Source: Shigella phage ESh27
Sequence record: ON528737
Length of the DNA stretch: 64,000 nt
Direction: 5' to 3' (one strand)
Of the stretch, positions 1,596-32,995 are shown one piece after another (within the stretch, counting starts at the first letter, position 1; every line of letters starts with the position of its first letter). The notes below the pieces were generated by a model, which did not search any database, was not told the origin of the DNA, and saw only the letters and a list, made by a program, of their open reading frames with translations. A program made the position numbers and the translations under genes.

Positions 1596-4500
1596 CTAAT
1601 TTAACCTGCGGTGGATTAATCGGGTCTCTAGGATTTCCCACGTTATCTAACAATCTTTCATTAACAAGCTCTCTAAATCTAGAGAACGTTGTACCTGATG
1701 CATCAAATAATGGGCTCATCGGCTTGCGTCGTTCGGACGGTAATTGTCCTTGGAAAATAGAGTTATCATTTTCTTCATTATAATTTGCAGGTAAAGGGTA
1801 TTCGATACCGGCATAAGGACCAGCATCATAAATTACTTCACCTGTAACAGGATTGAATTCTACATTACCTTGAGGGTCTAAACGAGCGACGCGGTCTGCA
1901 TATTCAGTAGGCAGTCCGGAATCCCACTTATAATTTTTATATTTATTAATAATAGTTTCAACATGTTTAAGCGTTAATCCTGTATTAATAAACATTGTTA
2001 ATAAGGTTATTGCAATAAATCCAAATCCTACCGGATGTACAAAACGTAGTACGTCAGATTTCCAACGAGAGGATGGAAGATTTGACTTTATTTTCATGAC
2101 GTAATAAGCTCTACCACGATTAAAATAATCGATAGTGTTTTGGGCAAGTTCTTTACCTTTAATACCGCGAACTATTTCACCTTCAAAATCTGCTAGTCTT
2201 TCGGCTTTTACTTCTTGACCGACTAAAAGCCTACCTAAAAGGTTATGAATAGTCACAGTCCATTGTAATTTACCTTTAGAATAGCTTCTTTCCAAATATG
2301 TAACATTACATCTACCTGTAGCGGTGTATATAGTTTGTCCAACCAAATCTTCACTTATGGAATCAGATTGAATTATGATATCATACTCTGTTCCAGCAGA
2401 TGACTCGATTTCCACTTCAACGTCTTCGTTATAAAGAACTTTAAACAAAAACTTATACGACGCTTCAGTTCCTTTAGTAGAATAAAAATCATAACTTCTA
2501 GACTCAAAGAACCTAGAAACTAAATCACGTTTCTCGGCATTCAAATAAATGTTCCGTTTATAAATTTCAGACCAAAGATATTCCCACGCGTGTTCTTCTC
2601 GTGGGTATTTATTTTTAATCAAATTCAATAAGTTATTATAATGAGTCCCGTATCCGTCAGAAAGATATTGAATATACGCTTCACAAAACGCTTCAAAGTT
2701 TGTATTATCCAACAGATAAGACTCTGGCATCATTGTAGTGAGTAATGGGCGTAAATCCGGGTCAGCTAGACCTGTCTCTTCAACAGGAACCCAAGAAGTT
2801 TCTTTTTCTTGGTTTTGTAATGAGGCGGTCAAAAATACGTTAGTGGGCTTCCAAATTATAGAAACGTTATCTCTAACACGATAACTAAAATCGTAATATG
2901 AAATTATTTCACCTGATGATTTATAAAACAACATACCAGATGCGTATTTTTTAAATCCAGTGAATTCTATATTCGGCATAACAATCTTACAATCACCATC
3001 ATTCCAGTATTCATGAACTTTACGATCAGGTGAAGTGCTAGGGTGGCTTTCCACTACCTTTGTATAAAGCAAATCAGAATAAATCACTACCGCTCTATCA
3101 GAGTTATTAATCCAAGAACGTGTGCCTGATTTTCTAGAATAACTAAAGAAAGGTTCTGCATAATACTGCATAGGAGTTGGTGAAAAAGTTTCCCAATTAC
3201 TTTCTTCGTTTGATGCGAAAATCATCATATGGTAATGTTTATCTGCGAGCCATTCTCTAGGATATTCATACTTAACTGCTCCTAAAAGTCCATACTTAGA
3301 TTGCGTTTCTGGGTCGTCAACAACATCAGATTCTAAAAATTTAAAATTACTAGAAGAGATATAAAGCTCAACACCATCAGTAGACATATTGGTGAAAGCC
3401 GGTTCTATACGACGGCGTTCTTCTTCGGTATTACCAAATATCCTTTTAAATGTTCCAGCGTCATGGTCTAAAACGTATACACCTTTATCAACGGAATCTA
3501 AAATAGGCTTTGTTCTTGGGTCGTCATTAACGTTTTCGACTTCACCAATAATAAGAGCGAATATTCTCCCACCAACAGAATCCATTTTATAACAAACTGC
3601 TTTAGGGTTGCCTGTTATTGTAAACGTCTCAGGTTCAAACAACCGTTCGGAATAGGTCGGAGATAATGGATCTGAATCAATAGGAGCGTTACTGGTTTTA
3701 ACGAAGCGAACTTTATCTCTGGCCGCAATATAAACATAGTCATCATTACAAGTAATAGCTTCTGCAATACGTGATACGTTTCCTGGTAATGACGCGTATG
3801 TACCGAAAATCTCTACATCAAAACCTAAATTTAATTGGTCCCCAATTTTAGCAAATGTTACATCTTGTGAACTGAAACGAACATCATCAGCAGACCAACG
3901 AATATCGGATGATTTACGCCCGTAAAAAATCTTATCATAGCCGAGCAAATACGTCGTATATTCTGATTGGTAATATACGGTTCGTGAAAGTGGATATCCT
4001 ACACGGTCATTAAGCAATTTAACCGCTTTCCATGTTTGGCCTTTATCATTAGACACTTTTACAATAGGTTGGAATCTTTCAAAAAGGTAAAGAATTCCTT
4101 CAGATTCCATTAGATATACTCGATTTATATCTTTACATACATCCTGGATATGCCCCTGGATTTCATGATACTGATTTTCACCAATTATAAAATTTCTAAT
4201 CGATGACACATCGGTGTATGCAGGACTAAATTGGAACGACTCGCTCATCAGTGCTGCCATGATCGTGTCATTATTAAAATCAACGTAGTTTGTATTATTT
4301 TTTGTAAATTTTTCAGAAATAAACTCGTTAGCTAATTGCATTTCAATCATATGTTGGAATGTGTAAGCGTTTATTTCAAATGTTTCAAACTCTTCGGTGT
4401 ATCTCCAATCAGACTGCTCAAATCCCTCCGCTGCTGTAGCCACACGCATCATATATGTTGTTAATGAATTTAAACCAGACTCAAAGAAATTGTTATCAGC

Positions 4501-19288: not shown

Positions 19289-19891
19289 ATGCGAAACCAA
19301 AATAATGATATTGACTCAATGTTCGAAGAGTTCCGAGATAAGGTAAATCCACCTACGTCTTTAGTTGATTCATTACGATATGTTGCAACTGGACGTAAAT
19401 GGTATTGGTCGTCTTCTTATGAGACTACTGAGAAAACGGCTAGCCATAGCAGAAAATCTTTATTAGCCCCAGGTATTATGATTCATGATATCGGAGCTAT
19501 TGCTAAACTAGTTGCAGACCATGATATTAGATTCACTGATTTCGTTGCTCCTACGTGGTCTGTTTGTTGTTTAAACACTGAATGGGAATATATCAGCGAA
19601 CGCTCTGAAGATTATTATGGTTTTAGAGATAAGCTTTTAAGGTCTAACATGTTTTATATCGATACTGAAGTTCTAGTCGATAATAAAAAATATTACTTTA
19701 CGTTAATCGTCGATTCTGAAACTATGTATGAAGGCAAGCCTTTGCTTAAAAGAGTTGATGCTTTAAGTGCTATTGATGCGCTTTATGAAACTATGGTTGT
19801 TAGTCCTAATTTCACTAACAATTTAATCCTTGAGCAATTTATTATGGAATGTAGAGAATATGTCAAAGCCAACCCTGTACATGCCAATTAA
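19289..19891 (+). CDS. hypothetical protein
   Basis: AAAGGAG then ATG at 19289. Confidence 0.6.
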   Translation: MRNQNNDIDSMFEEFRDKVNPPTSLVDSLRYVATGRKWYWSSSYETTEKTASHSRKSLLAPGIMIHDIGAIAKLVADHDIRFTDFVAPTWSVCCLNTEWEYISERSEDYYGFRDKLLRSNMFYIDTEVLVDNKKYYFTLIVDSETMYEGKPLLKRVDALSAIDALYETMVVSPNFTNNLILEQFIMECREYVKANPVHAN

Positions 19892-20255
19892 GCCCTGGGC
19901 ATACGAATACAAACGTAAATTAATCCCAAATGAAGTACTATTTGGCCCTATTTTAGCTTTAGCATTTTTAATCTTTATGATTATAGGAGCTGTTTTAGAT
20001 TCCAACAAAGTTATATCGTCTGATGCAGCGTTTTCATTAATGTTCGTCGCACCACTTATTGTACCGTTTTTATTAATGCCTATTAATTGGGCAGGATATT
20101 GGCACCAAGGCCGTCATCACAGAGCCCGATTAAGAGAATGGAAAGTTCAGTGTGCAAAAGCCCAAGCTCAGTATGATGAAGCTGTTAAAAAATATGAATA
20201 TGAAGAAGCCATGGAATTCGTTAAGGAGATAAGATGCAAAAGCCTCAACTCTTAA
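19860..20255 (+). CDS. membrane protein (start uncertain)
   Basis: Hydrophobic segments; overlaps upstream gene end; ATG at 19860 or 19881. Confidence 0.45.
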   Translation: MSKPTLYMPIKPWAYEYKRKLIPNEVLFGPILALAFLIFMIIGAVLDSNKVISSDAAFSLMFVAPLIVPFLLMPINWAGYWHQGRHHRARLREWKVQCAKAQAQYDEAVKKYEYEEAMEFVKEIRCKSLNS

Positions 20256-20593
20256 CCGTATGGCCTTCTCTTGGTGAGAACATTCTAATTTTTATTATGA
20301 GTATTGGCATGGGATTTGCCTTTGGATTAGTTGGATTTATTATTGACGGCGTTGTGTTAGGATTTATAGGGAACACTGGTGGATTCACAGACCAATGGCA
20401 GGACTTACGGTATACCCAAGCCTTTGCATCCATCGCATCGTTTTGTACTGTAGCCTATTTTTACTACGATTTTATAAACCATAACAAGAAAAATAAAAAA
20501 GTTTACGCTTCTCAAATGATTAGTTATAATGAACTTCTAGCTAGACGTGAAAATGAAACAATCGAAAACTTTATTAAGGAATGTAGAAAATGA
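20234..20593 (+). CDS. membrane protein
   Basis: 119 aa with two hydrophobic helices. Confidence 0.55.
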   Translation: MQKPQLLTVWPSLGENILIFIMSIGMGFAFGLVGFIIDGVVLGFIGNTGGFTDQWQDLRYTQAFASIASFCTVAYFYYDFINHNKKNKKVYASQMISYNELLARRENETIENFIKECRK

Positions 20594-29177: not shown

Positions 29178-29228
29178 GTTTACTTCTCCTCTAGTTGTGT
29201 TACTATAGACCTGTCAACTAGAGGAGAA
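29178..29228 (+). promoter_or_regulatory. early promoter inside a perfect 14-bp inverted repeat that includes the regB SD
   Basis: GTTTAC 29178-83, TACTAT 29201-06; arms TTCTCCTCTAGTTG (29184-97) / CAACTAGAGGAGAA (29215-28). Confidence 0.55.
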
Positions 29229-29234
29229 ATCAAA

Positions 29235-29693
29235 ATGACTATCAATTCGGAAGTTTTTATCCGCCGTAATAAACTCCGTCGAATCTTTGAAACGGAGTTC
29301 CGCAAAATAAATGCCGGTATAAAAGATGCTGCAAAGTCTCTTGGACTACCAGGCTTTCATATCAAGTATTCTCAACATCTCTTAGATCGTGCCATCCAGA
29401 GAGAAATAGATGAGAATTACGTTTTTGAATTATTTCGTAAAGTAAAAAATCACGTTAAAGAAGTTGCAGAATTTTTATCAATGCCGGCACGTCCAGATGT
29501 TGATGAAGATTTTGTCGAAGGTGTCGAATATCGCCCAGGCCGTTTAGAAATAACTGATGGAAATCTTTGGTTAGGCCTTACAGTTTGTCGCGAAAATCCG
29601 GCATTCAAAATGAAGACTCTTCAATGTAGAATGGCTATTATTAACAGTAAACGACTACCAGGAAAAGCTTCTAAAGCAGTGATTAAAATCTAG
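29235..29693 (+). CDS. regB: RegB site-specific endoribonuclease
   Basis: MTINSEVFIRRNKLRR...LDRAIQREIDE...RMAIINSKRLPGKASKAVIK matches T4 RegB. Confidence 0.92.
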   Translation: MTINSEVFIRRNKLRRIFETEFRKINAGIKDAAKSLGLPGFHIKYSQHLLDRAIQREIDENYVFELFRKVKNHVKEVAEFLSMPARPDVDEDFVEGVEYRPGRLEITDGNLWLGLTVCRENPAFKMKTLQCRMAIINSKRLPGKASKAVIKI

Positions 29694-29701
29694 AGGTAAA
29701 C

Positions 29702-30244
29702 ATGAGAAAAGCACTACTCGCTGGTCTATTTGCTCTTTCGTTATCAGCACATAGCTCCGAGCATACTTTTAGTAATGTCCAACTCGATAACTTGAATTAT
29801 GCTTATCAGTTTGGGGAACAGTTTTCTAAGGACGGAAAATTTAAAACGCATGAAAATATGCATAAGAAAGGACTTGGATACATAATGGCCGCAATACTAT
29901 GGCAGGAATCATCTGCCGGTGTTAATCTTAAAGATAAGAAAGGTCACCATGCGTATGGAATGTTCCAAAACTATCTACCAACAATGAGGGCAAGAATTAA
30001 CCAGCTTGGTTATAATATGACTGATGCCCAAATTAAGAAAATGCTATCTAAGCGGTCTAATTCAGCCAGATGGGCTTATATCGAATTTTCTTATTGGTTA
30101 AATATACATAACGGGGATATAAGAAAAGCTATATCCTCATATAATGCGGGATGGAAGACAAGTGCTGGAAGTAAATATGCTTCTGAAGTCCTAGAAAAGG
30201 CTAATTACCTTAAATCAAATAAACTACTGGAAGTAAAAGAATGA
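29702..30244 (+). CDS. secreted lytic-transglycosylase-like (SLT domain) protein
   Basis: Signal peptide MRKALLAGLFALSLSAHS; QESS and SYNAG motifs. Confidence 0.65.
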   Translation: MRKALLAGLFALSLSAHSSEHTFSNVQLDNLNYAYQFGEQFSKDGKFKTHENMHKKGLGYIMAAILWQESSAGVNLKDKKGHHAYGMFQNYLPTMRARINQLGYNMTDAQIKKMLSKRSNSARWAYIEFSYWLNIHNGDIRKAISSYNAGWKTSAGSKYASEVLEKANYLKSNKLLEVKE

Positions 30245-30588
30245 CCAAAATGTTGGCTTTAATAGTTGGCTTGGTTTCATTTAACGCTCTTGCTAATACT
30301 ACATATACTGATGTAACGGAGTATATAAACAGAACGGCGTCTGATTATTGTGGTAAAAGTCAAGAGTGTAAAGTAGATTTTTCACAAAAATTGTTATACG
30401 CATATAAAGACGGAGAAAAAGATGGGGCGTCTAGTAGGTTCAAGGCGTCTACCTTAATTAAACGATATCATAAAAAATGGCAAATATTAGAATGCTCGGT
30501 GGCGGAACCTAAAGATAAGGCAGCATGCAATTCTATGGTGGACCGTCTAGTTGACTCTTATACTAGAGGACTTGCAGCAAGTGATTAA
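30241..30588 (+). CDS. secreted cysteine-containing small protein
   Basis: Signal peptide MTKMLALIVGLVSFNALA; 115 aa. Confidence 0.55.
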   Translation: MTKMLALIVGLVSFNALANTTYTDVTEYINRTASDYCGKSQECKVDFSQKLLYAYKDGEKDGASSRFKASTLIKRYHKKWQILECSVAEPKDKAACNSMVDRLVDSYTRGLAASD

Positions 30589-31045
30589 AAACTATATCAA
30601 GGGCGATATTGTCGCCCTGTTTTCTAAAGGTAATAATATTGCTCATGGGTGTAATTGTTTTCATACAATGGGCGCAGGTGTAGCAGGACAATTAGCAAAG
30701 GCGTATCCAAAAATTCTGGAAGCTGATAAACTTCAAACTGTATATGGAGATGAGTCTAAACTCGGATCTTATTCAGTTTATGAAAAATATTTTAAGACCC
30801 ATAAAGCTTATTGCTTTAATCTTTATACACAGTTTGAGCCGGGACCTAATTTTGAGTACTCTGCTTTAATGAATTGTATAATAGAATTAAATGAATTCGG
30901 AAAAAATAAGATAACAAAGCCTGTAATTTATATGCCAAGAATTGGTGCAGGTATTGGTGGCGGAAACTGGGATGTCATCGAAGAGATTTTAGATACGTAT
31001 TCCACTAAACTAGAAATTGTGATTGTTGATTGGGAACCTAAATGA
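30581..31045 (+). CDS. macro-domain-like protein (putative ADP-ribose binding or processing)
   Basis: GDIV...NIAHGCNC...MGAGVAG and ...PRIGAGIGGG pattern; GTG start at 30581 after AGAGGA. Confidence 0.55.
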   Translation: MIKNYIKGDIVALFSKGNNIAHGCNCFHTMGAGVAGQLAKAYPKILEADKLQTVYGDESKLGSYSVYEKYFKTHKAYCFNLYTQFEPGPNFEYSALMNCIIELNEFGKNKITKPVIYMPRIGAGIGGGNWDVIEEILDTYSTKLEIVIVDWEPK

Positions 31046-31224
31046 AATTGACTAAAGAAGAGAAAGCTAAACTGTTCGAACTTATCCATGACCTATTGGA
31101 TGAGCAAGCAGCCACTAATGCGTATGATGAATATGCTCCTTTAACAGATGAAGAATATCAAACATTGTTGGAATCATTTGACAGGAAAGAACAAGAACTC
31201 ATTGACTATGTGAATTCACTATAA
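31042..31224 (+). CDS. hypothetical acidic protein
   Basis: 60-aa ORF. Confidence 0.45.
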   Translation: MKLTKEEKAKLFELIHDLLDEQAATNAYDEYAPLTDEEYQTLLESFDRKEQELIDYVNSL

Positions 31225-31233
31225 GGGACTCTT

Positions 31234-31815
31234 ATGGCTAGTTTAATTTTTACCTATGCCGCTATGAACGCCGGTAAGTCTGCTTCATTACTTACCGCCG
31301 CACATAACTATAAAGAACGTGGCATGGGTGTATTAGTTCTTAAACCGGATATTGATACTCGTGATTCAAAAGGTGAAATAGTCTCTCGTATTGGTATTCG
31401 TCAGGATGCCAATATAATTACAAAAGACATGGATATCTTTGAATTCTATAAATGGGCTGCAGCACAAAAGGATATTCACTGTGTATTTGTTGATGAAGCT
31501 CAGTTCTTAACTACTGAAAAGGTGTATCAGCTTAGTCGTATTGTTGACGTATACAATGTGCCGGTAATGGCATACGGACTACGAACAGATTTTAAAGGTA
31601 ATCTATTTGAAGGTTCTCAAGCATTAATGGCTATTGCCGATAAGCTTGTTGAACTTAAAGGTGTCTGTCATTGTGGTAAAAAGGCCACTATGGTAGCTAG
31701 AGTCACGGAAGATGGACTTCCAATTACAGACGGTGGACAAATTGAAATTGGTGATACTGATAGATATGTGTCATTATGCCGGAAGCATTGGAATGATTTG
31801 ACAGGGTTGTTATAA
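31234..31815 (+). CDS. tk: thymidine kinase
   Basis: P-loop AAMNAGKSASLL, VDEAQF, C-terminal zinc ribbon CHCGKKA...LCRKHW; 193 aa. Confidence 0.92.
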   Translation: MASLIFTYAAMNAGKSASLLTAAHNYKERGMGVLVLKPDIDTRDSKGEIVSRIGIRQDANIITKDMDIFEFYKWAAAQKDIHCVFVDEAQFLTTEKVYQLSRIVDVYNVPVMAYGLRTDFKGNLFEGSQALMAIADKLVELKGVCHCGKKATMVARVTEDGLPITDGGQIEIGDTDRYVSLCRKHWNDLTGLL

Positions 31816-31842
31816 ATACTAATATCTAACCAAGAGGTATAT

Positions 31843-32055
31843 ATGCAGCAATTAAACGAAAGACAACTTCGTAATCTTACTGTAACCCAATTGGATGAAA
31901 TCCGAAGAGAATTAGGACATTCTATTTCTCATTTAAACGAGGATATCCGTCAAACTGGTTCTAAAGCTGATTATACACGCAAGCGCAAGCTGGAAAAATA
32001 CCTCGCAGATGTTAAGGCCGTTCAAAGGCGAAAAATAAATACTGGCCAAAATTAA
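31843..32055 (+). CDS. hypothetical basic protein
   Basis: 70-aa ORF between tk and rI. Confidence 0.5.
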
Positions 32056-32067
32056 CAGGAGGCCTAT

Positions 32068-32370
32068 ATGGCCTTAAGAGCGATAGCCATTGTGGCGATG
32101 CTGGGGTTTTTTGCAGCAACGACTCCTATTGTTGGTACTGCATATGTTGACCCGTACTTTGATAACTTTATGGAATCAGGGATTAAAAACGTATATACTT
32201 TGTTCGAAATTCAAAATGTTGAGAATTCTGAAAAATTTTATAAGTATATGGCAAAGCATTACAAAAATAGCCCCTGTGATGATGCATTTGAATGCCAGGA
32301 ACAAGGCATAAAAACTGCCAGACAATTTGCCGAGTTCATGAAAATAAAATTAGAGCCTACATCTATCTAA
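32068..32370 (+). CDS. rI: lysis inhibition regulator RI
   Basis: Signal anchor MALRAIAIVAMLGFF..., VDPYFDNFMESGI..., ~100 aa, resembles T4 RI. Confidence 0.82.
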   Translation: MALRAIAIVAMLGFFAATTPIVGTAYVDPYFDNFMESGIKNVYTLFEIQNVENSEKFYKYMAKHYKNSPCDDAFECQEQGIKTARQFAEFMKIKLEPTSI

Positions 32371-32437: not shown

Positions 32438-32995
32438 ATGAAATTTTTAAAATATGTAAGTTGGGTTGTTCTTGTTCCTATAGATTGGATCGCAGCGATT
32501 TTGGCAATTATTCTAGCACCATTTGTAGTTCCATTCCATAGTGAAAAAACCGGTAAACTACCTTATGGCTTTAACTGGATGATGACTTACGATAATCCTA
32601 TCGATGGTGACCGTGGCCATGTTGAACGTTGGTCTAAAATACGTAAAATTCCTGTTATAGGTAAATATGCTCAACGCGTAGCTTGGCTATGGCGAAACAA
32701 AGCATATAATTTTTCGTATCATGTTTTAGGGCGTGAAGCTTCATCAGAATGGCACTATAAAGGCAACACCGAAACTAAATCTGGTTCTCCTGACCCAGCA
32801 CATCATGGATACCTTTTAGTTTGGAATGAGTCTGCATGGGGATTATTCGCTGCTATACCTTATCTTAAGGTCGGCGGTATTACATTTTATCTGCGCGTTT
32901 ACTGTGGTTGGAAACTTAAGAGTCTTTTGAGTCGTCCTATTCCACGCGCAATGCTTTCATTCCATATCAACCCTTTACGATATTACAAAAACTAA
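32438..32995 (+). CDS. membrane-anchored hypothetical protein
   Basis: N-terminal hydrophobic helix; 185 aa. Confidence 0.6.
   Translation: MKFLKYVSWVVLVPIDWIAAILAIILAPFVVPFHSEKTGKLPYGFNWMMTYDNPIDGDRGHVERWSKIRKIPVIGKYAQRVAWLWRNKAYNFSYHVLGREASSEWHYKGNTETKSGSPDPAHHGYLLVWNESAWGLFAAIPYLKVGGITFYLRVYCGWKLKSLLSRPIPRAMLSFHINPLRYYKN

Follow-up and report, generated by a model that had tools for sequence, protein, structure and literature searches.

Introduction

Between the genes for the RegB endoribonuclease and thymidine kinase, the reference record of phage T4 carries a run of small genes in the order regB, vs.1, vs, tk.4, tk.3, tk.2, tk.1, tk. Here we analyse the counterpart of this run in Shigella phage ESh27 (sequence record ON528737), which lies at positions 29702-31045 of a 64,000-nucleotide stretch of that record, hereafter the window. 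Similarity of T4 vs.1 to SLT-type lytic transglycosylases was noted as early as 2006 (PMC1524935). More recently, T4 tk.4 emerged from HIDEN-SEQ as the single significant hit of a T4 transposon library on a DarTG2 host, a clean tk.4 knockout was found to be sensitive to DarTG2, and the gene received the name adfM, for anti-DarT factor, macrodomain (bioRxiv 10.1101/2025.11.20.689424). The mechanism proposed for AdfM is removal of ADP-ribose from DNA, and an AlphaFold model of the T4 protein has a macro fold that matches the macro domain of Mycobacterium tuberculosis DarG (bioRxiv 10.1101/2025.11.20.689424).

The ESh27 genes are orthologs of T4 vs.1, vs and tk.4; they form no new kind of system, and the region is in large part already known. 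We regard it as probable that positions 29702-31045 are the Mosigvirus version of a conserved T4 early gene block, regB-vs.1-vs-tk.4-tk. That grade applies jointly to our best explanation as a whole, in which Vs.1 would be an exported GH23 enzyme, Vs would be exported as well and Tk.4 would act as an ADP-ribose eraser. All enzymatic activities assigned below to Vs.1 and Tk.4 are predictions from sequence, and the phenotypes described for T4 would carry over to ESh27 by orthology.

The regB-tk interval of ESh27 matches that of T4

The window open reading frames (ORFs) show three co-directional, overlapping genes bounded by regB and tk:

29702..30244, + strand: vs.1 ortholog, predicted exported GH23 / SLT-like lytic transglycosylase, 180 amino acids (83% identity to T4 Vs.1; PHROG 600; predicted fold)
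30241..30588, + strand: vs ortholog ('valyl-tRNA synthetase modifier', PF26829), 115 amino acids (67% identity to T4 Vs; PHROG 1256)
30581..31045, + strand: tk.4 / adfM ortholog, predicted cytoplasmic macro-domain protein, 154 amino acids, GTG start (84% identity to T4 Tk.4; Pfam Macro)

The first two genes overlap by ATGA and the last two by 8 nt. A megablast search of the phage collection with positions 29200-31900 gave 100% coverage at ~98% identity to Mosigvirus genomes, including mar005p1, AlbertHofmann and ESh15. The same search matched 664 records in all, nearly all of them from T4-like phages of enterobacteria, and the gene names under the matches were thymidine kinase, RegB endoribonuclease, valyl-tRNA synthetase modifier, and macro domain protein or phosphatase. 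Gene order as in T4 was also found in IME08 (Dhakavirus), VR26 (Gaprivervirus) and Klebsiella phage F48.

An earlier note on this DNA had described a secreted lytic transglycosylase, a secreted Cys protein and a macro-domain protein between regB and tk, and had proposed a role in counter-defence for the macro-domain protein and, for the exported proteins, a role at the envelope, for example in superinfection control. It read the gene anatomy correctly, and its overall interpretation is partly supported by the results that follow. Public annotation of the same genes is inconsistent: Vs is named 'valyl-tRNA synthetase', as if it were the enzyme, and Vs.1 is sometimes called 'endoribonuclease' or 'RegB domain-containing'.

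Vs.1 and Vs share conserved export-type N-termini

Signal peptides were called by a heuristic backed by conservation and not by SignalP. Both Vs.1 and Vs begin with a Lys/Arg n-region and a hydrophobic core (10-residue Kyte-Doolittle means of 2.4 and 2.8, respectively), which are followed by small-residue cleavage sites, LSA/AHS in Vs.1 and ALA before N in Vs. The predicted peptides are as follows:

29702..29755, + strand: predicted Sec signal peptide of Vs.1, MRKALLAGLFALSLSAHS, followed by SEH in one cleavage reading (heuristic)
30241..30294, + strand: predicted Sec signal peptide of Vs, MTKMLALIVGLVSFNALA, with cleavage before NTT (heuristic)

A stricter form of the heuristic asks for a positively charged n-region, the absence of acidic residues, a hydrophobic core scoring 2.2 or more, a -3,-1 site and a continuation that is polar. 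Only two of the 84 non-nested + strand window ORFs of at least 80 amino acids passed it, and these two, Vs.1 and Vs, are mutually adjacent. The pattern is also widely conserved. A signal-peptide-like N-terminus is present in 54 of 58 full-length Vs.1 homologs, and 53 of 54 distinct Vs sequences pass the test, the remaining one scoring 1.89 against a threshold of 1.9. In four of these 54 sequences a lipoprotein lipobox (LSGC) replaces the signal-peptidase-I site, and in an alignment of 37 homologs the N-terminus of Vs diverges freely yet always retains the n/h/c pattern. Two consecutive proteins with signal peptides had been claimed in the earlier note, and both proteins indeed match the heuristic. 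From these N-terminal sequences we infer that Vs.1 and Vs would be translocated and cleaved, with Vs.1 reaching the periplasm through the Sec pathway.

Vs.1 resembles a minimal GH23 enzyme

Vs.1 combines the E-S, G-x-F-Q and Y-N-A-G motifs with a predicted GH23 fold, as do Slt, MltD, EtgA and the goose-type lysozymes. The motifs lie at positions 67-70 (WQES), 86-89 (GMFQ) and 147-150 (YNAG). A search for relatives returned 119 Vs.1 homologs, all of them in T4-like phages (of Enterobacteria, Aeromonas, Acinetobacter and others), and the three motifs are present in 115, 96 and 114 of 116 homologs, respectively. The Glu of WQESS, an A-x-G-x-x-Q segment and Y-N-x-G are invariant in an alignment of 60 sequences. 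This Glu is the predicted catalytic residue:

29906..29908, + strand: codon of Glu69 (E51 in mature numbering), predicted catalytic Glu of Vs.1 in the WQESS motif (invariant, 60 sequences)

The structural comparison points in the same direction. The AlphaFold model of mature Vs.1 reached a pLDDT of 93.4 and a pTM of 0.89, and when it was searched against the PDB with Foldseek the top 18 matches were all GH23 enzymes, for example a Ralstonia GH23 chitinase, cod g-lysozyme, MltD and Slt; the Phi6 lysin and the T7 core protein appeared among the lower matches. Within the top group the Foldseek probability was 0.96-1.0 and the TM-score was 0.5-0.57 for most. A profile search of PDB sequences gave weak matches only, to the type III secretion system transglycosylase EtgA and to goose-type lysozymes, and in these the Glu of the E-S motif and YNAG align correctly. 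The match to PHROG 600 (3.9e-67) is strong, and that family has no assigned function.

Two scores count against assigning Vs.1 to this enzyme class: its match to Pfam SLT (19.2 bits) is below the curated cutoff of 21.3, and its Foldseek E-values are modest, starting at 0.018. Some Vs.1 homologs do have a precomputed PF01464 match. Vs.1 could also be a non-catalytic peptidoglycan-binding module, or a hydrolytic g-type lysozyme instead of a lytic transglycosylase: the Pfam score is low, and the top fold matches include lytic transglycosylases as well as g-type lysozymes and a GH23 chitinase. Given this mixture, the fold cannot decide the reaction chemistry. An inactive module, however, is hard to square with retention of the Glu and the three family-1 motifs in nearly all of the 116 homologs, and we consider this pair of alternatives unlikely.

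Overall, motifs and model suggest that Vs.1 is most likely an exported single-domain GH23 enzyme, specifically a lytic transglycosylase, in agreement with the SLT-like protein that the earlier note had recognised from QESS and YNAG. It would act on peptidoglycan in the periplasm as a small enzyme of the family-1 lytic-transglycosylase type, with Glu69 as the predicted catalytic residue. In contrast to the GH23/SLT enzymes named above, Vs.1 is a minimal single domain, is predicted to be freely secreted and is made early in infection. It is neither virion-borne nor an enzyme of the lysis cassette.

Vs is a four-Cys protein with a predicted periplasmic location

Vs belongs to the family annotated as valyl-tRNA synthetase (ValRS) modifiers. 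The window protein matches PHROG 1256, "valyl tRNA synthetase modifier", at 2.9e-35, and all Vs homologs have a precomputed match to PF26829, "ValRS_modifier". In addition to its identity level, it shares with T4 Vs an equal length, four Cys and the C-terminal motif SMVDRLVDSYxRGL. The four Cys (C37, C43, C85 and C96) are invariant, exactly four Cys follow residue 24 in 54 of 54 distinct Vs sequences, and across the wide Vs family conservation is limited to these four Cys plus two Gly and one Leu.

The AlphaFold model of mature Vs (pLDDT 93.1) is a four-helix bundle in which C37 and C43 lie at the turn between helices 1 and 2, and C85 and C96 at the turn between helices 3 and 4. We therefore picture Vs as a putative exported 11-kDa bundle in which local disulfides, C37-C43 and C85-C96, would each staple one helical hairpin. 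Searches for the function of Vs in PDB sequences, Pfam, NCBIfam and PADLOC gave no informative match, and Foldseek against the PDB returned nothing better than E = 0.4 for the model. Weak matches to a DUF1311 protein and a type VI secretion system immunity protein (probability at most 0.08) were set aside and not used. A profile search run exhaustively over 1.84 billion representative proteins yielded seven family members only and no cellular homolog. Two distant members, one of them a lipoprotein, lie in a vs.1-vs arrangement in T4-like contigs, and the only contig that extends far enough also shows regB upstream.

The signal peptide or lipobox of the Vs family and its disulfide pattern predict a periplasmic location, which the name 'valyl-tRNA synthetase modifier' does not imply. 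The earlier note had listed a 'secreted Cys protein' here. Its predicted signal peptide and its Cys residues are confirmed, but the note did not recognise the three genes as vs.1, vs and tk.4, known in T4 for a long time, and in particular not this protein as Vs, whose accepted role, binding of host ValRS, is cytoplasmic. Our search of the literature found no mention of Vs export.

The vs.1-vs pair is retained across T4-like phages

Evidence on how Vs might relate to Vs.1 comes from gene neighbourhoods. We searched 70 viral loci encoding a Vs.1 relative with the Vs profile and found vs downstream of vs.1 in 64, within a few bases of the vs.1 stop in 56. A Tk.4 gene is present in 56 of the 70 loci, and in Acinetobacter phages the vs.1-vs pair persists without regB and tk.4. 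Through the ATGA overlap, Vs would be translationally coupled to vs.1, and the two genes would be inherited together.

In several other T4-like phages a third exported-type protein is encoded directly after vs (L006 4724-5143, L007 778-1185 and L009 3848-4273 in our locus set). This protein has 135-141 amino acids; W-E/D-K/Q comes after its signal peptide, and its mature part contains two Cys. Three predicted secreted proteins thus stand in a row in these phages, whereas the window lacks the third gene.

Published insertion data for T4 (sheets S3 and S8 of the table cited below) place the two genes side by side. In M9, vs was depleted with a log2 fold change (log2FC) of -2.19 (adjusted p 0), and vs.1 changed in the same direction with a log2FC of -0.87 (p 0.0055, adjusted p 0.155) (HIDEN-SEQ Extended Data Table 6, sheet S8; bioRxiv 10.1101/2025.11.20.689424). 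In liquid LB competition, insertion reads were 26.6 for vs and 22.6 for vs.1 versus 128-652 for the non-essential neighbours regB, vs.3, tk.4 and tk, or ~10x fewer (HIDEN-SEQ Extended Data Table 6). This shared pattern suggests a joint fitness function for vs and vs.1. The lower vs.1 counts could instead be explained by a polar effect on vs, which would weaken the case.

Two locations for Vs

Predicted export of Vs, which rests on its N-terminus, Cys pattern and model, contradicts its accepted cytoplasmic partner, ValRS, and this conflict counts against a periplasmic Vs. It is nearly an even chance that Vs is a cytoplasmic protein that binds or modifies host ValRS, that its N-terminus is no working export signal and that its adjacency to vs.1 is only inherited gene order. 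The predicted mature protein of ~11 kDa is near the size of the classical ValRS factor, which we take to be roughly 10 kDa. Classical T4 genetics and biochemistry support this role, as far as they are represented in a later paper (Muller and Marchin 1975, 1977, as cited in PMC8076793). Moreover, deletion of T4 vs gives fewer plaques specifically in minimal medium (M9-glucose), which fits a function in amino-acid supply (bioRxiv 10.1101/2025.11.20.689424).

Several properties of the family are difficult to reconcile with a purely cytoplasmic protein. The n/h/c-type N-terminus is kept across the 54 distinct members despite free divergence of the sequence, with the lipobox in four, and the four Cys sit where they would staple the hairpins of helices 1-2 and 3-4, a pattern typical of periplasmic proteins. 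Further, vs stays beside the predicted-exported vs.1 even in the Acinetobacter phages. Finally, N-terminally His-tagged T4 Vs expressed in the cytoplasm is insoluble and forms inclusion bodies (PMC8076793), consistent with a need for oxidative folding.

A further, tentative proposal, to which we give clearly less weight than to a cytoplasmic Vs, is that Vs is really a Sec-exported periplasmic protein, lipid-anchored in some phages, with four helices and two disulfides, and that it works with Vs.1, for example by regulating, inhibiting or targeting it. In that case the ValRS effect would stem from Vs that was not exported, from compartments that mix in extracts or from an ORF assigned to the wrong locus. 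T4 Spackle (Sp) offers a parallel: this phage protein, small, helical and periplasmic, carries a signal peptide and a disulfide, is made early and binds the muralytic gp5 lysozyme. The likeness between Vs and Spackle is a functional analogy only, and neither the fold searches nor the Pfam scan of Vs, in which Spackle was not itself compared directly, showed similarity to any lysozyme or transglycosylase inhibitor.

The inconsistency in the textbook annotation, an exported-type Vs with a cytoplasmic ValRS role, has consequences in either direction. A periplasmic Vs would call for a re-examination both of vs locus biology and of how T4-like phages use a transglycosylase early and without lysis; if Vs is exported and also tied to Vs.1, a long-standing T4 annotation would need revision. 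With a cytoplasmic Vs, nothing in the region would be out of the ordinary.

Tk.4 is a stand-alone macro-domain protein

The tk.4 reading frame begins at GTG 30581, which aligns with the ATG of T4 Tk.4 (VIKNYIKGD versus MIVKYIKGD) and has GAGG 11 nt upstream. A GTG start is common to other Mosigvirus loci, and ATG occupies the position in 34 other loci. The alignment, the GAGG and the conservation among Mosigvirus loci all back the GTG start that had been called probable in the earlier note. We discarded TTG 30551 as an alternative start, since it is internal to vs, lacks a Shine-Dalgarno sequence, is not conserved and is a product of mechanical ORF listing. In at least one public record, OR062947.1 (L001 3969-4346), the macro gene is started at an internal ATG, 29 codons short.

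Profile searches identified the macro domain that the earlier note had claimed. Tk.4 matched Pfam Macro (PF01661) with 28.2 bits, above the cutoff of 22, over profile positions 2-117 of 118. It also matched PHROG 335, "phosphatase", at 2.1e-66 and, in the macro part only, the PADLOC DarG model at 6.5e-9; NCBIfam DarG (NF048014) scored 32.4 bits against a cutoff of 250, over profile positions 4-148 of 338. The best matches among PDB sequences were Bacteroides BT1257 (1.2e-10) and yeast Poa1p (1.2e-8), followed at ~1e-3 by Streptomyces SCO6735, human TARG1 and the Thermus and Mycobacterium DarG macro domains. The Poa1p match falls in two stretches and speaks to homology, not to substrate. Taken together, the matches to Macro, Poa1p, TARG1 and DarG place Tk.4 as a stand-alone macro domain of the Poa1p / TARG1 / DarG-like branch.

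The window protein also resembles T4 AdfM in its place directly after vs, in its equal length and in its conserved loops, and differs from it in having a GTG instead of an ATG start. Related domains occur outside phage genomes. Tk.4-like macro domains lie under SLOG family protein genes on large plasmids of Bacillus thuringiensis and relatives (H83-H93), and a stand-alone copy with 44% identity is found at 19859-20305 of the 137-kb E. coli plasmid CP057073.1 (H66), possibly a phage-plasmid. When plasmids were searched by tblastn for a DarG sequence, the matches were stand-alone macro proteins and macro-SLOG fusions only, none annotated as DarG.

The Tk.4 active site departs from that of DarG and TARG1

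The TARG1 sequence, identical to PDB 2lgr, was aligned to Tk.4 by MAFFT and by profile hidden Markov model (HMM). Both methods pair the loops MGAG(V/I)A and PRIGAG(I)(G/A)GG of Tk.4 with RMGAGIA and PRIGCGL of TARG1. Tk.4 resembles DarG and TARG1, members of the ALC1-like macro class, in sequence homology over the whole macro domain and in these shared ADP-ribose-binding loops, and as judged from the alignments it very likely binds ADP-ribose. We consider Tk.4 (AdfM) a cytoplasmic stand-alone macro domain that most likely binds ADP-ribose joined through its C1''. It would remove the ADP-ribose that DarT2 places on thymidines of single-stranded DNA, so that phage replication could continue in DarTG2 hosts. 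The value of this result is confirmation: this Mosigvirus carries the same gene as T4, a putative eraser acting against the DNA-ADP-ribosylating DarTG2. The earlier note had suggested that a phage macro domain could counter ADP-ribosylation-based defence, and this idea gains from T4, whose ortholog is needed against DarTG2 in both the screen and the knockout.

A number of observations argue against Tk.4 as a DarG-like eraser in ESh27. The DarTG2 phenotype belongs to T4 and not to a Mosigvirus. By sequence, the closest solved relatives of Tk.4 are BT1257 and the ADP-ribose-1''-phosphate phosphatase Poa1p, not DarG. At the position of TARG1 K84, Gln is found in five of five MAFFT-aligned Tk.4 orthologs and in the consensus of an eight-sequence Tk.4 profile, and the position of TARG1 D125, whose Asp serves to resolve the lysyl-ADPr intermediate, holds Gly in the window and T4 and Ala in IME08, VR26 and F48. 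K80 of TaqDarG is the equivalent of the TARG1 lysine, and the K80A variant is inactive (PMC5179494); the equivalence of the Tk.4 position to K80 was taken through TARG1 and that study. With Gln at the catalytic Lys position, the lysine mechanism of DarG and TARG1 is unusable by Tk.4, and if Tk.4 is a DNA de-ADP-ribosylase, these alignments imply that its chemistry must differ from that of DarG. The substitution thus suggests that either Tk.4 hydrolyses the thymidine-ADP-ribose bond by other chemistry, or its real substrate is a different, soluble one, or it neutralises the toxin without catalysis.

The second of these options would make Tk.4 no DNA repair enzyme but a Poa1p-type phosphatase or hydrolase of soluble ADP-ribose derivatives (ADP-ribose-1''-phosphate, O-acetyl-ADP-ribose or immune signals of the cyclic ADPR type), with an indirect DarTG2 phenotype. 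The rank of BT1257 and Poa1p ahead of TARG1 and DarG favours it, as does the absence of the TARG1/DarG catalytic Lys-Asp pair; BT1257, like Tk.4, has Gln at the TARG1 K84 position. The T4 annotation names Tk.4 an A1pp phosphatase, and a comparative-genomics review concluded that phage macro domains mostly target small ADP-ribose derivatives (PMC9503650). Poa1p, however, acts on a soluble tRNA-splicing metabolite, whereas for Tk.4 the genetics of T4 favour a DNA adduct as the substrate that matters. We know of no T4-type RNA repair that yields ADP-ribose-1''-phosphate, which counts against a soluble substrate of this kind. In addition, the product of DarT2 is a DNA adduct, the papers cited here describe no soluble ADP-ribose signal for DarTG, and the T4 screen singled out tk.4 as its sole significant DarTG2 hit, with the clean deletion sensitising the phage (bioRxiv 10.1101/2025.11.20.689424). 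Overall, a soluble substrate has only a small chance of being the explanation.

The third option, neutralisation of DarT2 by toxin binding or by shielding of ADP-ribosylated DNA, is in our view the least probable of the alternatives considered here. The Gln that replaces the Lys required for DarG activity would fit it, and the antitoxin mimic AdfB of phage ICP1 demonstrates that a phage can counteract DarT by direct binding (PMC11481870). Nevertheless, even distant Tk.4 orthologs show strict conservation of the ADP-ribose-binding loops, and a K80A variant of the TaqDarG macro domain, taken in isolation, fails to inhibit DarT (PMC5179494). Unlike DarG, Tk.4 is a 154-residue protein without a C-terminal DarT-binding domain, in keeping with its low score against the full-length NCBIfam model.

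Flanking genes and other features

Three neighbouring genes frame the block:

29235..29693, + strand: regB endoribonuclease, upstream context (Pfam REGB_T4 5.9e-69; PHROG 1323)
31042..31224, + strand: tk.1-like small protein (DUF7438), downstream context (Pfam DUF7438 2.1e-15)
31234..31815, + strand: tk thymidine kinase, downstream context (Pfam TK 3.1e-56)

The interval between tk.4 and tk differs between the two phages: in T4 it holds three small genes, tk.1, tk.2 and tk.3 (L002 2847-3426), versus the single DUF7438 / tk.1-like gene in the window (31042-31224). Farther along, positions 32438-32995 encode a 185-residue DUF7338 protein just downstream of an rI antiholin homolog (32068-32370); it has an N-terminal transmembrane segment that the heuristic did not score as a cleavable signal peptide. 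A scan for sigma-70 promoters gave eight sites versus 10.1 expected by chance, and hence no excess.

Finally, a terminator-like element was detected near the start of tk.4:

30600..30618, + strand: 8-bp G+C-rich hairpin GGGCGAUAUUGUCGCCC followed by a U-run, 20 nt inside the 5' end of tk.4 (terminator-like match)

F48, L006, L007 and Aeromonas phage 31 have lost this hairpin, even in cases where different codons preserve the peptide KGDIV. T4 (L002 ~3850-3872, - strand), IME08 and VR26 (L003, L005) retain it with no more than one change at a loop position, and it could act as an intragenic terminator or stability element.

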